The position numbers and the translations under genes were made by a program. From positions 1 through 30,978 of the forward strand of contig SUPR01000036.1 of NCBI GenBank assembly GCA_005191425.1: a DNA stretch of 30,978 nucleotides, given 5' to 3'. This DNA comes from Candidatus Helarchaeota ASGARD archaeon Hel_GB_B. GTDB lineage: Archaea; Asgardarchaeota; Lokiarchaeia; Helarchaeales; HEL-GB-B. Every line of letters starts with the position of its first letter. The first letter of the stretch is position 1. Of the stretch, positions 1 through 29,183 are shown in pieces. A model generated the notes under the pieces. It saw nothing but the letters and a program-made list of their open reading frames with translations, was not told the origin of the DNA and did no database searches.

Positions 1-110
1 ATAATAATATTTATATTTATAATACATTTTTAAAATCATCTCATATTATGATTAAATAAAAATAATAGTTTGATATAGAAAAATCTTTTTTAATTTAGTC
101 GGAGAAAGAA

Positions 111-130
111 ATTTATTTATTTATTTATTT
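111..130. repeat. (ATTT)5 microsatellite just upstream of the nucleotidyltransferase start
   Basis: Direct reading: atttatttatttatttattt at 111-130. Confidence 0.8.
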
Positions 131-138
131 ATATATTT

Positions 139-561
139 TTGCCGGGCAAAGGTTTTTGTAAAATCTCGAAATATATAGAAACTATCAAAAAAAATTTAGA
201 GCCATTATGTATAATTCTTTTTGGGTCTGTAGCAAGAGGGGATTATAACGAGCGTAGTGATATTGATTTGGTCATTATTTCTAATTCATTTCCTAAAAAT
301 TCTCTAAAAAGACTTAAATTACTGATGGACTTAATAGGTAATTTGACACCAATTGAACCTTTTGGTTATACCGATGAAGAATTTAAAAATATGATTGAAA
401 AAAGACATCTGACAGCACTCTTTGCTATGGAAGAAGGAATAGCACTTTATGGTACCAAATATTTTAAAAAGTTAAGAAAACAATATAATATAATGAAAAA
501 AAGAACTGGACTGGTACTCGAAGATTGTATCTGGGTAACTACAAAGCTAATTAATGAATAA
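139..561 (+). CDS. Minimal nucleotidyltransferase (MNT, Pol-beta superfamily)
   Basis: IILFGSVARGD...SDIDLVII is the GS...DxD signature of MNT proteins; 140 aa; TTG start. Confidence 0.9.
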   Translation: MPGKGFCKISKYIETIKKNLEPLCIILFGSVARGDYNERSDIDLVIISNSFPKNSLKRLKLLMDLIGNLTPIEPFGYTDEEFKNMIEKRHLTALFAMEEGIALYGTKYFKKLRKQYNIMKKRTGLVLEDCIWVTTKLINE

Positions 562-18403: not shown

Positions 18404-21400
18404 TCATTTACTTATTTTAACGGCTTTACTGTCGTATATAGGGCCGATTATATTGAAAAACAGGTTGATGTGTCCTTCTTGGACAGATATTATGCCGCTA
18501 ACAGCTTTATCGTCTTCTTCGCCTGGTGCGATTAAGACTTCTTGTTTGTCTCTAAACGCGCCGTAGAAATTTTCTTTGATGTTAAATATGAGGATATTGT
18601 CTTTATCGAGTAATTTTATGACTTTTTCGGATTTTATTAAGGTATCGGAGAGGTTGGTATATAACCTAACGTCAATTGCGGGTTTAATTTTATTTAATTC
18701 ATCAAAAGGGATGTTATTTGGGTCGGGGATCAATAAGATTATGGAAGATGTTGTTCTAGAGATCATGTCCTTGATATGTTCAATAACGGCGCTGAGTGTC
18801 TTCAATTCCCAGGTGCCACTTTCTCTTAGCTTTTGTTTGTTTTGTAGTTCTTGCCAGACATAACGTAGCAACAGCTCGGAGTCGGATGTTTCTTTTTGGA
18901 GTTCGTTGATTTGGTCGATAAAAATTTTGGAAGTTTTGGACACCTGGTCAGATATCACTTTAAGAAATTCAGAGGTAATGGTCGTGAAAATACCTTGGGA
19001 CATGTCTTTTTTGTTTTGAAGTTCATTTTTTTGGTCTTCAATAAATTTTGAGATCTTTTTTTGGATATCAATTAATAAATTATTGATATTTTGCTTTTGG
19101 TCGTTGATCCTTATTTCAATGTTTTCCTTAGAATTATTTAGGAGGAGTTGATTTTGGTCGGCATGGTTTTTTATCGACTCATCGATGGCTTCTATTAAAT
19201 TAGAGTTCAAGTTTTGGTATTCTTCCGTAATCCACTGAACGGAATTTTTGACGGACTCGCTAAACAATTTTTGGATTTTTTCGATATTCTGGGCGTTTTT
19301 AGTCAATATATTTTCCATTTTAGACTGAGGGTCTTTAATACCTTCCTTTAACTTACTAGAAGAAGATTCAATGGAAGATTCAAAAGTATCTCGGACATCT
19401 TTCATTAATTTAATTCCAGACACGACATTCTCATTATAAAGGGAGATCGACTGGTTTTGGAGGGTTCGTATAAATTCCTTGATGTTGTTTCTGAGGGTAT
19501 TAAATGAGTCTGTGAATAACGAAGAGAGTTCTGTTGCACCTGTTTTTAAATTGGAGATATATTCAGAAAAATTGGCATTGGAAGTGTCTTTTAGCGACAA
19601 GAAAGAAGTGGCAGATTTGTTCTTTAACTCCACGAGAGTTCCAGTTAAATTTTTATTGATATTCATGAGGACGTTGTTGAATAATTTACCATGAGTATTG
19701 ATCCTTTTTTTGATGGTGCTTTCCATTTTATCGATCGTGCTAATAAATTCGGATTTAATTTTGCTTAATTTTTGGGTGAAATCGGTTAATTTGTCTTGAA
19801 AATCTTTTATAGTATTATCAGAATATGTATTTCCGATTATTTCAACTTCGTTAATTAAGGACTCATTTTTTTGGTTAAAAGAGATGTTGTATGATTTGAT
19901 TAACTCTTCAATTTTTTGAGAATATGTTTCGTTTAAATTTCTATTTTCATCAGATATTGAAATAATTGTACTTGTTATATTCGATATCATTTCGCTGACA
20001 TTTGACTTTATAAATTCCAGGCTTTTATTTAGGGTCTTATCAAAGTCAGTAAGTAGAGTGGACAACAGTTCTTCTGAATTTGTAATTTCTCTTGTTAATT
20101 CTACAGATATTGCAGACTTAATATTTTCAAGCAGTAAATTATAGTTAGACGTCTGTTCGGTAATATTTTTGTTCAAGTTGTCCTCAATTATTGTCGCAAT
20201 TTGGGATATGATATTGAATTGGTTTTGAAATTCTTCTTGAAGTTTAGTCTCGAACCTTTTGGTAGTGTCAATAATGGTTTGAATTCTTTTTTCATATAAT
20301 TTTTTAAAGTTTTCTTCTAAATTAGAGAGTTTTTCCCGGGAGGTGGAAGCCTGTAAGTCGATCTCCTTAAAAATTCTTTTGACCAGGTTTTCTATGCCGT
20401 CCTTAAATAGTGAGATTTGGTCATTGAGCATGTTTTGGCTATCTTGGAGGAAGGAAATAGATTCAGAGTTAAATGACCTGGTATCCTCCAAAATATGTTT
20501 TATTTCTCCATTGATGACTTCAGAAAATCTAGTTTGTGTTGGAACAATATTGGTATTTACCAATTCTATTTGTGATTTAATTACATCCTTAAGTTCATCA
20601 TTTAATTTTATGAGTTTCTCTTGGAATTGTTTTTGAGTTTCTTCTGTTCTGCTTAAAATTTCATTTTTTAGCTTGTTTAAACCGGCACGAGCATTTGTCA
20701 GTTTAGTTTTCATGACTTCAGAAAATTCATTTAGGAAATTTTTTGCGGAGGACTCATACAATTCTACGTTATCTTTAAGGTTATCATTAAGATTTAACTC
20801 GAATTCTTTTGAAATATTGGAAAATTTTTCGAGGTGTTGTCCTAACCCATCGATGATACTTTTATTTAATTCATCAGATAAATTAATAATTGAAGTGTTG
20901 ATAAAAGTAATATTTTTCTTGAAATCCTTTTTGATGGTTTCAATATTCTTATTTAATGAATTAAAATATTCGCCAAATAATTCATTAACGCCTTGTTCTA
21001 TTGTGTCCGAAAACTCTATAAATTTATTTTTTCCACCAGATAAAGATTCAACCACGTCCTTATCAAAGTTTGAAATCATGTCATTAATTACCTTTAAAAG
21101 ACCACCGATTAGCTCAATTTCTTTTGTGTGCAAATTATCGATTTCGGTCTCAATAGTATTATGGATAGTTTCCATTACCTCGAGAAAATTATCATTTAAG
21201 GAAGAAGTTAACTCAAGGTTTTGGTTTAGTGCGCGTTCGATATGATTTTTTAATAGATTTTGTGTCTCATAAAAAATTTTATCGGCAGGTTCATTAAATT
21301 CTTTAACGAAATTTCGTTCCAATTTCTCGAGTTCGATGGAAGAATCTCGAAACGTATTTAAAAAATTGATAATCTTTTGAGTAAAAGTCTGACGGAGGTT

Positions 21401-22144
21401 AATTACGTCATTGGAGAAATTATTTAGGACGTCAATAAAAATTGTGGTCGCACTCTCAATAGCCTTTTGTGTGTCATTTTTACTCATCTGAATAAATTCA
21501 TCGATATGCATGTTTAAATCATTTTCACCTTTTCTTGAAATATCCCGAACTTCGTTAGTTAAATTTGAGATCTTGTTAACAATTTCGCTCTTAATATCGG
21601 ATAATATTTTATCAAATTCTTGTATATATTTTTCTGCAAATGATTGGAGTTCTTTATTGATTACATTTAAATGTTTGGATATTTCAGCTTTTGTAATTTT
21701 AAAATTATCTTGAATATTTTTGTTAAGGAGTTCAGATTTACTTGTAATAGACTGAATGTAAGAGTCGAATTCACTTTTTACTGTATCAATCTTATTATTT
21801 GCGATATCCCCAATTTTCTGTTCTGTTTCTACCGCAATACTATTAATTTTATTTATAATTTTACTGATATTTTGTTCTAATTTATTTAATTTTTCTAAAT
21901 ACCCTTTATATGGAGGGAGTGCCTGGTAATTTTTAATTAACCCTGGGAGTTCGACAATTAAATTTTTCTTTTTCAACTTTTCGATACACAAAGTGAGGCT
22001 CAAATATTCGAGTTTAGAGTAAGAACTTATCTCGCCCATAGTCAATGGGCCATAATTTAAAATAGTTAGGTAAGTAATGACATCAAATTCATCTAGATTT
22101 AAAATGTCCATTAATACTTTGTTAATATGGGGTTTCTCCATCAA
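18404..22144 (-). CDS. Giant TrmB-like regulator: N-terminal HTH, about 1000-aa helical/coiled-coil insert, C-terminal TrmB-type effector domain
   Basis: LNLDEFDVITYLTILNYGPLTMGEIS...KLKKKNLIVELPG..KNYQALPP (TrmB HTH); C-terminal IEHIKDMISRTTSSIILLIP; the middle is amphipathic and Pro-poor. SD-like GAGGTGG upstream of TTG/ATG. Confidence 0.72.
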   Translation of the reverse strand: MMEKPHINKVLMDILNLDEFDVITYLTILNYGPLTMGEISSYSKLEYLSLTLCIEKLKKKNLIVELPGLIKNYQALPPYKGYLEKLNKLEQNISKIINKINSIAVETEQKIGDIANNKIDTVKSEFDSYIQSITSKSELLNKNIQDNFKITKAEISKHLNVINKELQSFAEKYIQEFDKILSDIKSEIVNKISNLTNEVRDISRKGENDLNMHIDEFIQMSKNDTQKAIESATTIFIDVLNNFSNDVINLRQTFTQKIINFLNTFRDSSIELEKLERNFVKEFNEPADKIFYETQNLLKNHIERALNQNLELTSSLNDNFLEVMETIHNTIETEIDNLHTKEIELIGGLLKVINDMISNFDKDVVESLSGGKNKFIEFSDTIEQGVNELFGEYFNSLNKNIETIKKDFKKNITFINTSIINLSDELNKSIIDGLGQHLEKFSNISKEFELNLNDNLKDNVELYESSAKNFLNEFSEVMKTKLTNARAGLNKLKNEILSRTEETQKQFQEKLIKLNDELKDVIKSQIELVNTNIVPTQTRFSEVINGEIKHILEDTRSFNSESISFLQDSQNMLNDQISLFKDGIENLVKRIFKEIDLQASTSREKLSNLEENFKKLYEKRIQTIIDTTKRFETKLQEEFQNQFNIISQIATIIEDNLNKNITEQTSNYNLLLENIKSAISVELTREITNSEELLSTLLTDFDKTLNKSLEFIKSNVSEMISNITSTIISISDENRNLNETYSQKIEELIKSYNISFNQKNESLINEVEIIGNTYSDNTIKDFQDKLTDFTQKLSKIKSEFISTIDKMESTIKKRINTHGKLFNNVLMNINKNLTGTLVELKNKSATSFLSLKDTSNANFSEYISNLKTGATELSSLFTDSFNTLRNNIKEFIRTLQNQSISLYNENVVSGIKLMKDVRDTFESSIESSSSKLKEGIKDPQSKMENILTKNAQNIEKIQKLFSESVKNSVQWITEEYQNLNSNLIEAIDESIKNHADQNQLLLNNSKENIEIRINDQKQNINNLLIDIQKKISKFIEDQKNELQNKKDMSQGIFTTITSEFLKVISDQVSKTSKIFIDQINELQKETSDSELLLRYVWQELQNKQKLRESGTWELKTLSAVIEHIKDMISRTTSSIILLIPDPNNIPFDELNKIKPAIDVRLYTNLSDTLIKSEKVIKLLDKDNILIFNIKENFYGAFRDKQEVLIAPGEEDDKAVSGIISVQEGHINLFFNIIGPIYDSKAVKISK

Positions 22145-24962: not shown

Positions 24963-25850
24963 TTAACTAGAATCTTCATTATTGTCCGGCTCACTTTTAG
25001 TGTCAAGATCCTCAGATGAATCATTTTGTGTATTATCTTTAGAATCGCTAATATCTTCGAATGGAGGAGTTACAAATTCTGCGACATAATAATTAATGCC
25101 GCGCTGCGATTTTTCTTCAATTATATTCAAGTTAGCATAGTCATTTTTGAAACACATCATTCTGAACCGCCGACCATCCAGTTTATTTTCAATCATAATT
25201 GAATGTGCGATATTGATTATTTGCTGGACAAATTCAGTCCCTTTATTTATTTCGTCTATATTGTTTTCTATAAAACCTTGGATGTTATCGTTTGCGAATT
25301 GCAGCCATTTTTTTTGGAATAAGTAGTTAATCAAGGTTGGTGCAATACAGGATACTAACACAACCGGGATCATAATGTACCATTCAATACCACTTACAAG
25401 TAGTCCAGTCCATGAGAGAGCGATAACTGCACCCATTGCTGCTATTGAACCAATATAGATGGGTAAATTATATTTTCGAGTTAATTCATTTATTGATTTA
25501 GTATATCCGCCTTCTGCAGCAAACTTTTTGGCATTAGACAGAATATTTGTTGTTATTTCATCTATTTTGAATTGTTCATGAGCTTGTTTAAATTCGTCAT
25601 TATTTTCTAAAAGAGGATTAATGACTTCAATATTATATTGATTAAGAGCCTTTGCTTGAAATATCATATCAAAAGGTCTATTAATAATATAATCATAAAA
25701 ACCAATTGCAGTTAACATGTATTGCAGAAATATAGTTGGAGGAGAATCAGGAGTCAATACTATTTTTCTCTTTTTATTTGCTCTTTTTTTATCTTTAGTT
25801 TTTTTCTCATCTTTTAAATTTTCTTCATTATTTTCTTCGGATTTTGTCAT
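24963..25850 (-). CDS. Hypothetical membrane protein (2 central TM, charged termini)
   Basis: Hydrophobic segments LPIYIGSIAAMGAVIALSWTGLL and WYIMIPVVLVSCIAPTLINYLF; Lys/Glu-rich N-terminus and acidic C-terminal tail. Confidence 0.72.
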   Translation of the reverse strand: MTKSEENNEENLKDEKKTKDKKRANKKRKIVLTPDSPPTIFLQYMLTAIGFYDYIINRPFDMIFQAKALNQYNIEVINPLLENNDEFKQAHEQFKIDEITTNILSNAKKFAAEGGYTKSINELTRKYNLPIYIGSIAAMGAVIALSWTGLLVSGIEWYIMIPVVLVSCIAPTLINYLFQKKWLQFANDNIQGFIENNIDEINKGTEFVQQIINIAHSIMIENKLDGRRFRMMCFKNDYANLNIIEEKSQRGINYYVAEFVTPPFEDISDSKDNTQNDSSEDLDTKSEPDNNEDSS

Positions 25851-25996: not shown

Positions 25997-27046
25997 ATGG
26001 TTATAAAAATTATAATGACAGAAGTACATGGAGAAATACTCAATTCCACAAATTCTTTAAAGTTACAAAATGTTATAAAAAGTTCCAATTTCTCAATACA
26101 TTTTTTAAAAGGGAAAATAGATGCCAAAGTCCTAAGAAATTATCATGTTTTAATTATTGGTGGTCCTACAGTACCATTAGACCTCTCAGAAATTTTAGCA
26201 GCTGAGAAATTTGTAAACCAAGGGGGGTTTCTAGTTTTATTGTCAGTGGCGGGAGGTGATTTAAGCAACAATAATTTATCAGAGTTGAGCAGGAGATTTG
26301 AATTTGAATTTAACCCAGATTATGTAGAGGATTATAAGCATAATATCAATAATAACCCGCGACTACCTATTATTCGTTATATTAAGAAAGGTTTCTCAAT
26401 AACAAAAAGTGTTAACAAGATAGTATTTACTGGTTGCTCAATATCAGTCTTAGATGACAGCGTAAAGGGCTTTTTATATACGGATAAAGATGCATTACCA
26501 TATATGGCTACTTTAGGAGTAGTTTCTCTAGAAAAAAACATTATTGGACTTTCAAGTTCATCTATTTTCAATGATACGCTTCTTGATAAATTTGATAATA
26601 AAAGATTATTACAAAATATTCTTAATTATATAGAATCGATTTTTAAAAAAATTGAAAAGGAATTACGAGTAAAACACAAAAATTTAACCCCATTGAGGGC
26701 ATCTAAAATTATAGAACACCTAATAATATTAAATTCTAAAAAACTTGAAGAAATAGATAAATTAATAGACAAGATGTGGAGTAGAATTATTGATCAAATA
26801 CCAAGATTGGAAAATAAAATAATATTAGAGAATTTAGAGAAAAGTTATAAATTAATTCTTCAAAAAATTGATTTGCTGGACTTCGAAGTGGGGCAAAAGA
26901 ATTCTGAATTTAATTTTCTTGGTGAAAAATATCAAGAATCAGTACAACAAGCAATGAATAGGTGGTATGAAACAGAAGCTGAAAAAAGAGAGAAATTAGA
27001 TATGATCAAGAACAACTTACTTACAAGAATTAATAATTCTAATTAA
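25997..27046 (+). CDS. GIFT/DUF4350-type (IFT52/GldG-like) domain protein + helical C-terminal domain, paralogue 1
   Basis: YHVLIIGGPTVPLDLSEILAAEKFVNQGGFLVLL...NNLSELSRRFEFEFNPD and SSIFNDTLLDKFDNKRLLQNILNYI match the GIFT pattern; no signal peptide. Confidence 0.72.
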   Translation: MVIKIIMTEVHGEILNSTNSLKLQNVIKSSNFSIHFLKGKIDAKVLRNYHVLIIGGPTVPLDLSEILAAEKFVNQGGFLVLLSVAGGDLSNNNLSELSRRFEFEFNPDYVEDYKHNINNNPRLPIIRYIKKGFSITKSVNKIVFTGCSISVLDDSVKGFLYTDKDALPYMATLGVVSLEKNIIGLSSSSIFNDTLLDKFDNKRLLQNILNYIESIFKKIEKELRVKHKNLTPLRASKIIEHLIILNSKKLEEIDKLIDKMWSRIIDQIPRLENKIILENLEKSYKLILQKIDLLDFEVGQKNSEFNFLGEKYQESVQQAMNRWYETEAEKREKLDMIKNNLLTRINNSN

Positions 27047-27163
27047 ATATAAAAATATCACTAGTATAAAAAGGAATAAATAGTGAAGTCCTACATTTTA
27101 TTATATTAATATTAAATTTACCAAATTCTTATTTAATATAATTGCCTAAAATGATTTGAAAAA

Positions 27164-28261
27164 ATGAACTACAGAATAGTTTTTGATGAAACCCATCATG
27201 AGATTTTCTCGAACAAAAACTGTAAAAAACTTTCAAATTTATTAAAAAAGCATTCGTTTATATCATTTCGACTTTTAATTGGTCCAATTAAACCAGATAA
27301 TTTAACTGAAGAAGAATATTTATTTATAGGTGCCCCAAAGGATTCATTTTCTCATGAAGAAGTCGAAACAATTATTAATTTTGTGAGGAACGGAGGTTTT
27401 ATAATAATTGTTTGTAATTCTATGAGAAATAATTCGTTCAATATTAATTCTCTCGCAAAACATTTTGGCATCAGGTTTGATTTCAATCATGTAAAGGACT
27501 CAAAAAACCACTGGAAAAGTGCAGAATATTTTCCTTTAATTACTAACTTCAATAAGAGCCACTTAACAAAAAATGTGAATAAATTATATTATTCAGGAGC
27601 GACTTTAACATTAAACAGAAATGATTGTTATCCGATTGCATTTACTTCTAAAGATGCTGAGCCACCAAATAGTCCTATAATTGCAATATCAAGTAAAGGG
27701 CATTGTATTGCAATTGGTGGTTCTACAATGTTTTATGATGATGAATATGGTATTTCTGCAGGTAATAATTCTGTATTTGTTTCTAATCTTTTTAAATATC
27801 TAATTTGGGCTAAAAAGTATCCTGATAAGGTCATTGAGTACAGACAGATATCGCCGCGTCCAGATTTTTCAACCCGTAAAATACCATTGAAAAAAGCATC
27901 AGAGATTTTAAATAAAAAGATTAAAGAAATATACAACGATTATAATAAAATATTCGATAAAATAGATAAATTAATGGACAATATCATTAATATAATACAA
28001 ACTGAGAGAAATAAGGATACAGAAGCAAAATTAAAAAGCAATTATAAGGAGATACAAGATCAAATTCAATCATGGCAGATATATTTGTTTGAAGTGATTG
28101 AAAAACTGGAAAATGACGTAAATAGGCCCTTAGAATTTGTAAAAATAAAAAATGAAAAATTGAATGAATTTTATGTTAAGGAAAGTGAAGTAATAGAACA
28201 TTTGGATAGAATTTATGGGCGGTTAAGTTATTATATTAAACATCCAGAAGCAATTCCATAG
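27164..28261 (+). CDS. GIFT/DUF4350-type (IFT52/GldG-like) domain protein + helical C-terminal domain, paralogue 2
   Basis: RIVFDETHHE, LFIGAPKDSFSHEEVETIINFVRNGG, NINSLAKHFGIRF, YYSGATL, PPNSPIIA, GGSTMFYDDEY...NN; no signal peptide. Confidence 0.78.
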   Translation: MNYRIVFDETHHEIFSNKNCKKLSNLLKKHSFISFRLLIGPIKPDNLTEEEYLFIGAPKDSFSHEEVETIINFVRNGGFIIIVCNSMRNNSFNINSLAKHFGIRFDFNHVKDSKNHWKSAEYFPLITNFNKSHLTKNVNKLYYSGATLTLNRNDCYPIAFTSKDAEPPNSPIIAISSKGHCIAIGGSTMFYDDEYGISAGNNSVFVSNLFKYLIWAKKYPDKVIEYRQISPRPDFSTRKIPLKKASEILNKKIKEIYNDYNKIFDKIDKLMDNIINIIQTERNKDTEAKLKSNYKEIQDQIQSWQIYLFEVIEKLENDVNRPLEFVKIKNEKLNEFYVKESEVIEHLDRIYGRLSYYIKHPEAIP

Positions 28262-28404: not shown

Positions 28405-28773
28405 TTGGTCATAGAAAATAATTATGAGGCTATCTTACAGAAATTAATTGACCAGACAAAAATTTATGGAGCTTCACTTAATACAATAGATGGTCTGCCG
28501 ATTATCTCGATATTTAAAAATAATAAATCCATTGAAGATGCATTTGTCTCAGCCATATCATCGGCAATGACTATGCATTCAGAGAAGGTAATGTCGGAAT
28601 TTGAATGTGGAAACCTTGATAATTGTAAAATACAAGGAGAGAATGGTCAAGTATTAATATTTAAGATTAACTCTTTAATTCTTTTGGTTCTAGCTCCTAA
28701 ATCCATTTCTCAAGGAATCCTTCATTTAGGTGTAAAGAGTTGTATCAGAGAAATTAAAAAATTAAACTCATAA
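28405..28773 (+). CDS. Roadblock/LC7 (MglB-like) domain protein
   Basis: GASLNTIDGLPIIS...VSAISSAM...GNLDNCKIQGENGQVLI...LLVLA, 122 aa; TTG start. Confidence 0.85.
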   Translation: MVIENNYEAILQKLIDQTKIYGASLNTIDGLPIISIFKNNKSIEDAFVSAISSAMTMHSEKVMSEFECGNLDNCKIQGENGQVLIFKINSLILLVLAPKSISQGILHLGVKSCIREIKKLNS

Positions 28774-28865: not shown

Positions 28866-29183
28866 ATGAGTGAAGATGAAATATCCGTAGATTATGTGTG
28901 TGATGCTACACAATTGACTTGGGTAGAAGATAATTTGATAAATGAGTTAATGACATTTTTAGAGGATAAAATCCGAGATTATGGCGGTATTGTCGAAATA
29001 GATGGTAAGAAGATCATAATTGGATTTACTTCGGATGAAAAATTGAGTAAAAGAGCGATTAAAACATACATTAAAAGATTTTTATATAAATATGAATTAT
29101 TAGACCGTCTTAGAGTTATATCATCGGGTGCAAATGAATATATGATCCATAAATTAAAAGATGTAACCGTTAAAAACTTATAA
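28866..29183 (+). CDS. rpl22e: Ribosomal protein eL22 (L22e) homologue
   Basis: LSKRAIKTYIKRFLYKYELLDRLRVIS...EY parallels the eukaryotic eL22 C-terminal pattern (FSKRYLKYLTKKYLKK..LRDWLRVV....Y, recalled from memory); 105 aa. Confidence 0.82.
   Translation: MSEDEISVDYVCDATQLTWVEDNLINELMTFLEDKIRDYGGIVEIDGKKIIIGFTSDEKLSKRAIKTYIKRFLYKYELLDRLRVISSGANEYMIHKLKDVTVKNL

Follow-up and report, generated by a model that had tools for sequence, protein, structure and literature searches.

Two adjacent genes in a 30,978-nt stretch of an Asgard archaeal genome (Candidatus Helarchaeota archaeon Hel_GB_B, contig SUPR01000036.1; the full stretch is called the window below) encode proteins whose N-terminal domains are specific relatives of the GIFT domain of IFT52. 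IFT52 is a core (IFT-B1) subunit of the intraflagellar transport (IFT) machinery that builds eukaryotic cilia, and the IFT-B complex has it as its backbone. As to where its GIFT head came from, only a loose connection to GldG-type proteins of bacteria has been drawn. The archaeal genes, called A (25997-27046) and B (27164-28261) here, each join an IFT52-type head to a tail of three helices. The reading we favour, though with some reserve, is that they represent an old, order-specific tandem duplicate within a GIFT family of IFT52 type that is near-universal in Asgard archaea, and that their products are two-module, non-catalytic adaptors.

The kinship of the heads with IFT52 is seen at the level of protein families, of single sequences and of structure. 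Both heads score above the Pfam gathering cut-off of 27.2 bits for IFT52_GIFT (PF23355; scores in Table 1). In comparison, ABC_transp_aux (PF09822; cut-off 34.7 bits) reaches 23.1 bits in A and 29.5 bits in B, and DUF4350 (PF14258) also stays below its cut-off in the two proteins. When the proteins were compared as single sequences with all chains of the PDB using phmmer, the significant matches were to IFT52 only (Chlamydomonas 5FMR and 8BD7_B; mouse 5FMS), with E 2e-9 for B to 8BD7_B and 5FMR and E 5.6e-8 for A to 5FMR. The AlphaFold2 model of full-length B (predicted local distance difference test, pLDDT, 90.5) led Foldseek to the N-terminal domain of IFT52 as the top match (5FMR, 5FMS; E 5.5e-14 to 7e-13, template modelling score by target 0.76-0.87, identity 19-26%), followed by OST48/Wbp1 (E 1e-8 to 1e-6) and then by ThuA-like proteins and amidotransferases. 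The original prediction, made by reading the DNA without database searches, had pointed to an IFT52-like residue pattern in the second protein; Pfam, the PDB sequence search and Foldseek all rank IFT52 first, and by sequence they do so for both heads.

A profile built from 68 aligned Asgard heads gives the same picture. PF23355 matches all 68 of them (best E 2.2e-29), and the profile itself finds Chlamydomonas IFT52 at E 2.7e-32 (113-115 bits) and mouse IFT52 at 4e-28 (101 bits), the next protein being OST48 at E 0.03 and 17 bits. The columns that are invariant or at least 90% conserved in the 68 heads are D8, P58, E66, V74, G77, N93, F101, D112, P167, G185, F190, G196 and N208; those from P58 to D112, which fall in the first half of the domain, are identical residues in Chlamydomonas IFT52. 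Neither Cys nor His is found among these columns, and a catalytic triad of the amidotransferase type is therefore absent.

The last point bears on another reading, in which A and B would be enzymes from the ThuA/class I amidotransferase-like superfamily, with a sugar or another small molecule as substrate and a tail that serves for oligomerisation only. Foldseek does list ThuA-like, amidotransferase and glycoside-hydrolase domains at E about 1e-6, ThuA (PF06283) weakly matches 37 of the 68 heads, and one relative is labelled 'ThuA domain-containing protein' at NCBI. However, the invariant columns offer no Cys, no His and no other triad-like set, by far the nearest solved relative is IFT52, a non-enzymatic scaffold, and no metabolic partner gene is conserved beside the pair. 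We regard an enzymatic role as unlikely.

The two genes share more than their heads. A and B are paralogous end to end (27% identity, E 4e-26 in a full-length BLASTP comparison), and the two co-oriented open reading frames (ORFs), of 349 and 365 amino acids (aa), are present with the common architecture first described for them. In neither protein does a 19-residue window reach a Kyte-Doolittle value of 1.6, and the first strand of the GIFT domain stands at the very N-terminus of A and of B, so that neither a signal peptide nor a membrane segment is predicted, as had also been read from the sequence by eye. Both proteins are thus predicted to be soluble and cytoplasmic. This is difficult to reconcile with a role as a GldG-type accessory of an ABC transporter or gliding apparatus, which would work outside the cytoplasmic membrane. 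The weak ABC_transp_aux matches given above are what would recommend such a role, but both fall short of the family's cut-off, the proteins have no predicted signal peptide or membrane anchor, and no ABC transporter gene is found in the window or at the syntenic loci. We consider it very improbable.

The GIFT heads of the window belong to a family of wide range. PF23355 is found in 392 of the 400 genomes of the window's phylum (Asgard), above the cut-off in 373 of them and usually with several matches per genome, and a soluble family with an IFT52-type head in nearly all genomes of the phylum is a candidate eukaryotic signature protein, given the specific nature of the head and its near-universal presence. 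Elsewhere, in samples of 121 genomes each, matches above the cut-off occur in 4 genomes for the phylum to which a Flagellimonas (Bacteroidota) belongs and in 6 for that of a Methanomicrobiaceae genome; the 14 control genomes have no match. Three word-indexed homologue searches, queried with B, with the full-length alignment and with the heads only, returned Asgard-labelled or unlabelled proteins and one with a bacterial label, and none of the three returned eukaryotic IFT52. The nearest orthologues of B are labelled 'Candidatus Helarchaeota' or 'Promethearchaeota' at NCBI; it is by such labels that the organism and its phylum are assigned to Asgard, and the presence of L22e agrees with this.

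Whether such a family stands close to the origin of IFT52 was approached through a proxy for ancestry, in which 484 sampled non-Asgard genomes were scored with the 68-head profile. Members of the Asgard family reach about 190-340 bits. The best score is 106.5 bits in the Actinomycetota sample (one genome of 121), 97.4 bits in the sample of the Methanomicrobiaceae-type phylum (with several proteins at 84-94), 77.4 bits in Bacteroidota and 59.5 bits in Chloroflexota. IFT52 is the top-scoring outsider, by a small margin. On these profile scores the Asgard family may be ancestral to the IFT52 head, but with some non-Asgard prokaryotic proteins at 86-106 bits, against 101-115 for IFT52, the closeness of the family to that origin is not established. 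The Actinomycetota score comes from a 315-aa frame (L196; G829:C24 13016-13705) in the phylum sample of a Streptomyces genome, and this frame is the sole match to the Asgard head profile among the 121 genomes of that sample.

These scores also speak for a bolder proposal, which sees in the locus a proto-IFT or trafficking module: A and B would form a heterodimeric scaffold working with the Roadblock/LC7 protein encoded downstream, and the family would be the direct stock of eukaryotic IFT52. In its favour, IFT52 tops the non-Asgard scores (at most 106.5 bits was reached in the 484 sampled genomes), and the Pfam leanings differ, the Asgard heads going to IFT52_GIFT and the best non-Asgard matches to ABC_transp_aux or DUF4350. 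However, IFT52 leads the other prokaryotic relatives only narrowly. In a language-model search, eukaryotic IFT52 appears at rank 22, behind small GIFT-like clusters from bacteria and archaea, and a structural search of the ESM Atlas returns Asgard, Chloroflexota, Actinomycetota and eukaryotic clusters intermixed. Other parts of the IFT52 system are not found either: IFT52_central (PF23352) has no match in A or B at E<=1 and only chance-level matches elsewhere in the genome (E >=0.28), and IFT46_B_C (PF12317) is not found in this genome, which is 93.7% complete.

The pair itself is also not the part of the family nearest to IFT52. A third GIFT paralogue in the same genome (contig C149; L001 1366-2709; 447 aa), with a head followed by a long coiled coil, scores 68 bits with IFT52_GIFT, against 36 for A and 50 for B. 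By sequence, the two proteins form a diverged branch, confined to one order, within a family that extends across the phylum, and the original suggestion that the pair itself may stand near IFT52's origin is not borne out. The genome carries in addition a 1277-aa open frame on contig C146 (L039) that matches ABC_transp_aux at 36.8 bits, above the cut-off; it is a separate, GldG-like GIFT protein.

Tandem orthologues of A and B are found in four other genomes (G123, G125, G126 and G128) and, at 54-63% identity, in relatives from metagenomes; in G124 the contig ends at the B-type gene, and G127 has one GIFT gene. In a tree of 28 sequences made with IQ-TREE (support given as two values), the A plus B family is monophyletic with respect to other Asgard GIFT proteins (100/100), and a single clade (100/99), with gene A inside it, unites the upstream genes from each of the order's three families with the single gene of G127. 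Since the upstream genes of the three families fall into one clade, the tandem duplication is older than the radiation of the order: on this tree it predates the split of the three families, and both copies have been kept. Their retention suggests distinct, possibly joint, roles. Other orders of the class were represented by five complete or near-complete genomes; in these five, B finds matches to its head only, and no tandem pair was seen. The pair is thus conserved within its order only, and G127 departs from this even within the order. As for the heterodimer originally envisaged, a complex prediction for full-length A and B, each with its own alignment, scored 0.00 against a mark of 0.32; it was run without controls, and the outcome speaks neither for nor against binding. 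We think an obligatory A-B heterodimer doubtful.

The tails form the second module. Beyond the low-confidence linker, the full model of B has three long helices, and the tail modelled alone gives a closed three-helix bundle (pLDDT 95.1; predicted template modelling score, pTM, 0.83). The likeness of the two tails that had been aligned by eye holds up well. An alignment of 18 sequences of A-type and B-type contains eight invariant columns (A9, D32, Y58, I65, E104, D112, I114 and L118 in the numbering of the B tail), among them those of a motif close to the tail's end, E-[SA]-E...L-D-x-I, and the tail profile scores A and B at 130-147 bits. No Pfam family covers the tail in either protein. The description of the tail as a novel helical domain is therefore right for its sequence family but not for its fold. 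Foldseek with the tail model found nothing at E<=0.001, and an atlas feature search gave no usable match. An exhaustive structural aligner returned Z scores of 10-14, at a root-mean-square deviation of 2-4 A over 105-125 aligned residues, for designed bundles, spectrin repeats, syntaxin Habc and ribosome recycling factor. By the aligner's own note, helical bundles can attain such Z values through shape alone, and the Z of 10-12 with the spectrin repeat, a three-helix bundle of about 106 residues, is among them; for this repeat Foldseek gives E>=0.1, and the sole hint from Pfam is the SESTD1-like spectrin family at E 0.15. Because Z 10-14 lies within this shape-alone range, the fold, as modelled, is an ordinary three-helix bundle, and only its sequence family is new, and very narrow.

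How narrow it is can be seen from its distribution. In the 400 genomes of the phylum the tail profile gives strong matches (E 1e-33 to 1e-43) in seven of the seven genomes of the order that were searched, its own included, and only weak matches outside the order, to long coiled-coil proteins in 17 other genomes, which we read as composition noise. Against 1.84 billion representative sequences it finds 35 proteins at E<=0.001 and 15 clusters at E<=1e-10. Among ten tail carriers that were scanned, seven are above the IFT52_GIFT cut-off and one is just below it; in P0051, a tail carrier with no Pfam match, the head region also aligns to B by BLASTP.

The module is also used outside the GIFT proteins. 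Two proteins from related Asgard metagenome-assembled genomes, P0058 (898 aa; L190 1011-3707) and P0060 (411 aa; L191 7001-8236), carry it at 64-70 bits and have long hydrophobic N-terminal regions, which make them polytopic membrane proteins on a reading by eye. In P0060 the module is at the C-terminal end; in P0058 it is followed by about 165 residues that match no family and show no similarity to Roadblock by BLASTP or Pfam. Genes for a Ras-like GTPase and an actin homologue lie on the same contig as P0060. G128 has a protein that is hydrophobic in its N-terminal region and carries a weaker copy of the tail. A module common to soluble GIFT proteins and membrane proteins suggests a role in assembly or tethering. 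Two other proposed kinships of the tail were rejected: a 'MLDYIR' motif in another Asgard family was not significant in a hidden Markov model comparison, and a relation to the family of the upstream 295-aa membrane protein received an hhalign probability of 0.2%.

The helical nature of the tail could also recall an adaptor of the type found in the endosomal sorting complex required for transport I (ESCRT-I), in which the tail would correspond to the stalk and 'steadiness box' of Vps23/Tsg101. We find this hardly credible. Vps23_core (PF09454) matches contigs C128 and C122 of the genome but, even at E<=10, not C114, the contig of A and B, the comparison of the tail profile with both Vps23_core-bearing proteins yields an hhalign probability of 0.2%, and the tail is modelled as a closed three-helix bundle, not a hairpin.

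The surroundings of the pair (Table 1) offer some candidate partners. The window is AT-rich (G+C 22-43%), and scans for tRNAs and Rfam families found nothing in it. Ribosomal protein L22e is a recurrent neighbour of GIFT genes across the order (L035, L036, L047, L050 and L051). The 295-aa protein upstream of A has no significant Pfam match; homologues of its type, 256-306 aa long, adjoin GIFT genes in all three families (L035, L038, L047, L050 and L051; coordinates 357-1166 in L047, 549-1394 in L050 and 6780-7547 in L051), and in two of the three families L22e comes directly after this membrane protein. The remaining genes of the window, for UvrC, glycoside hydrolases, an M48 peptidase and a P-type ATPase, are unrelated. 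In the relative L038, a gene with a 1304-aa product stands in the same position beyond Orc1 as the 1245-aa protein of the window.

Table 1. Genes A and B, their parts, and neighbouring genes of the window
Feature	Window position	Residues	Strand	Description and evidence
Gene A	25997..27046		+	ORF, 349 aa; head and three-helix tail
Gene A head	25997-26662	about 1-222		IFT52-type GIFT; PF23355 36.4 bits
Gene A tail	26675-27043	227-349		Three-helix; tail profile 130 bits
A-B spacer	27047..27163			117 bp, from ORF coordinates
Gene B	27164..28261		+	ORF, 365 aa; GIFT head, linker, three-helix tail
Gene B head		1-228		GIFT; PF23355 50.2 bits
Gene B linker		228-236		Low confidence in model
Gene B tail	27872-28258			Helices 242-280, 284-318, 322-359
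Roadblock/LC7 protein	28405..28773		+	122 aa; PF03259 23.9 bits, just above cut-off 23; 143 bp downstream of B
Ribosomal protein L22e	28866..29183		+	PF01776 35.4 bits
324-aa membrane-anchored protein, GNAT acetyltransferase	downstream of L22e		+
295-aa protein	24963..25850		-	Central hydrophobic stretch, two membrane helices by eye; divergent from A
Orc1/Cdc6 gene	beyond the 295-aa protein, upstream of A		other strand than A/B
1245-aa protein	18404-22144		-	N-terminal TrmB-type winged helix, long apolipoprotein-like helical repeats

The neighbour that enters the proto-IFT proposal is the Roadblock/LC7 gene. Proteins of this family have a dynein-light-chain or MglB-type fold. The gene is found in the same position after B in the relatives whose A and B are 54-63% identical. 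In G127 (L051, G127:C5; 3727-5950, minus strand) the single GIFT-plus-tail gene is followed by a gene for a 178-aa tetratricopeptide repeat (TPR) protein and then by a Roadblock/LC7 gene, whose product scores 36.6 bits with PF03259. This trio, found in one genome, recalls the TPR partners of IFT52. In G125 (L047 5385-6290, +) and G123 (L048 2447-3364, -), the place of the window's Roadblock is occupied by a protein of 302-306 aa without a Pfam family, encoded 15 bp after B.

For the proto-IFT proposal, the Roadblock beside the pair in the window and its nearest relatives, together with the TPR and Roadblock genes after the single GIFT gene of G127, is a further recommendation. Against it, Roadblock is not adjacent in G123-G125, the tail is confined to one order, and A and B are further from IFT52 than the C149 paralogue of their own genome. 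Taken with the scores discussed above, this leaves the proposal with little probability in our view. As synteny within one order may simply be inherited, we treat the neighbours as candidate partners only.

We return to A and B as adaptors, the function that we consider most likely; what the analysis establishes is their homology, architecture and distribution and the age of the duplication. The head, whose GIFT fold is of alpha/beta type and resembles that of class I glutamine amidotransferases, would most likely provide a non-catalytic docking surface for proteins. This is proposed by analogy with the GIFT head of IFT52, which is in contact with the IFT57/38 coiled coil and, in IFT88, with the C-terminal TPRs (PMC9753473). 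The tail, a three-helix bundle of 120 residues, would most likely act as an assembly or targeting module, since the same module ends polytopic membrane proteins of related archaea. Finally, the two genes would probably be read as one transcript: the A-B spacer measures 28-65 bp in the relatives examined, which agrees with co-transcription. Docking, tail-mediated assembly and co-transcription are all put forward here as parts of a model.

Several observations weigh against this reading. How head and tail are placed with respect to each other is uncertain in the B model (pTM 0.63). Because the head resembles ThuA and amidotransferase folds, it may conceivably have a small-molecule or enzymatic role. 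Roadblock genes lie elsewhere in G123, G124 and G125, and the neighbours of the GIFT genes thus vary within the order. In the tree, the downstream, B-type genes fall into three supported family-level groups but not into a single supported clade. The single copy in G127, moreover, means that the family as a whole does not require a heteromer.

GIFT proteins as a kind are already known, and database pipelines tag these proteins with PF23355. What is new is the architecture of head and three-helix tail, its ancient duplication in tandem, and the finding that membrane proteins use the tail as well. In the literature searched, we found no paper that names IFT52 together with Asgard archaea, or with other archaea, in this sense. 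It is the family that matters for the question of how a core ciliary protein arose, and it supplies a concrete set of sequences for a phylogeny of GIFT heads; the A/B pair is a local offshoot, and its locus adds the recurring neighbours, namely the membrane protein, L22e and Roadblock. In the most far-reaching case, the soluble Asgard family would be the stock of the IFT52 head, and the paired scaffolds of this order, assembled through their tails, tethered to membranes via the module and coupled to Roadblock, would represent a pre-ciliary trafficking adaptor; we would give this only a slim chance. If the family turns out to be one of many prokaryotic GIFT lineages, A and B would be an ordinary lineage-specific adaptor pair.

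It is useful to set the two proteins beside the known systems that they resemble in part. Spectrin repeats, syntaxin Habc and domain I of ribosome recycling factor have the bundle shape of the tail, a likeness that, with no Pfam match and no Foldseek match at E<=0.001, need not reflect shared descent. GldG/ABC_transp_aux (PF09822) and DUF4350 (PF14258) proteins, from bacteria and other archaea, belong to the same superfamily as the heads, which match them weakly and lie near them by structure in the ESM Atlas; A and B differ from them in leaning to IFT52_GIFT and in having neither a membrane anchor nor transporter neighbours. The luminal domain of OST48/DDOST/Wbp1 (PF03345) has the same fold as the head (Foldseek E 2e-8 to 2e-6), although the sequence signal is marginal (E 0.03, 17 bits). 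OST48, which carries the second eukaryotic domain of GIFT type, is a membrane-anchored luminal subunit of oligosaccharyltransferase. With IFT52 itself (OSM-6/BLD1; PF23355; 5FMR, 5FMS, 8BD7 chain B), A and B have the head in common by Pfam, phmmer, profile, Foldseek and signature residues. They lack the central region of IFT52, which threads IFT88 and IFT70, as well as its IFT46-binding C-terminal domain, and have the three-helix bundle in place of these parts; their host is an archaeon without a cilium. The remaining counterparts are the other soluble Asgard IFT52-like GIFT proteins, which share the head family, the solubility and a helical or coiled-coil tail with A and B; what sets A and B apart from them is a tail family confined to their own order, and the tandem duplication.

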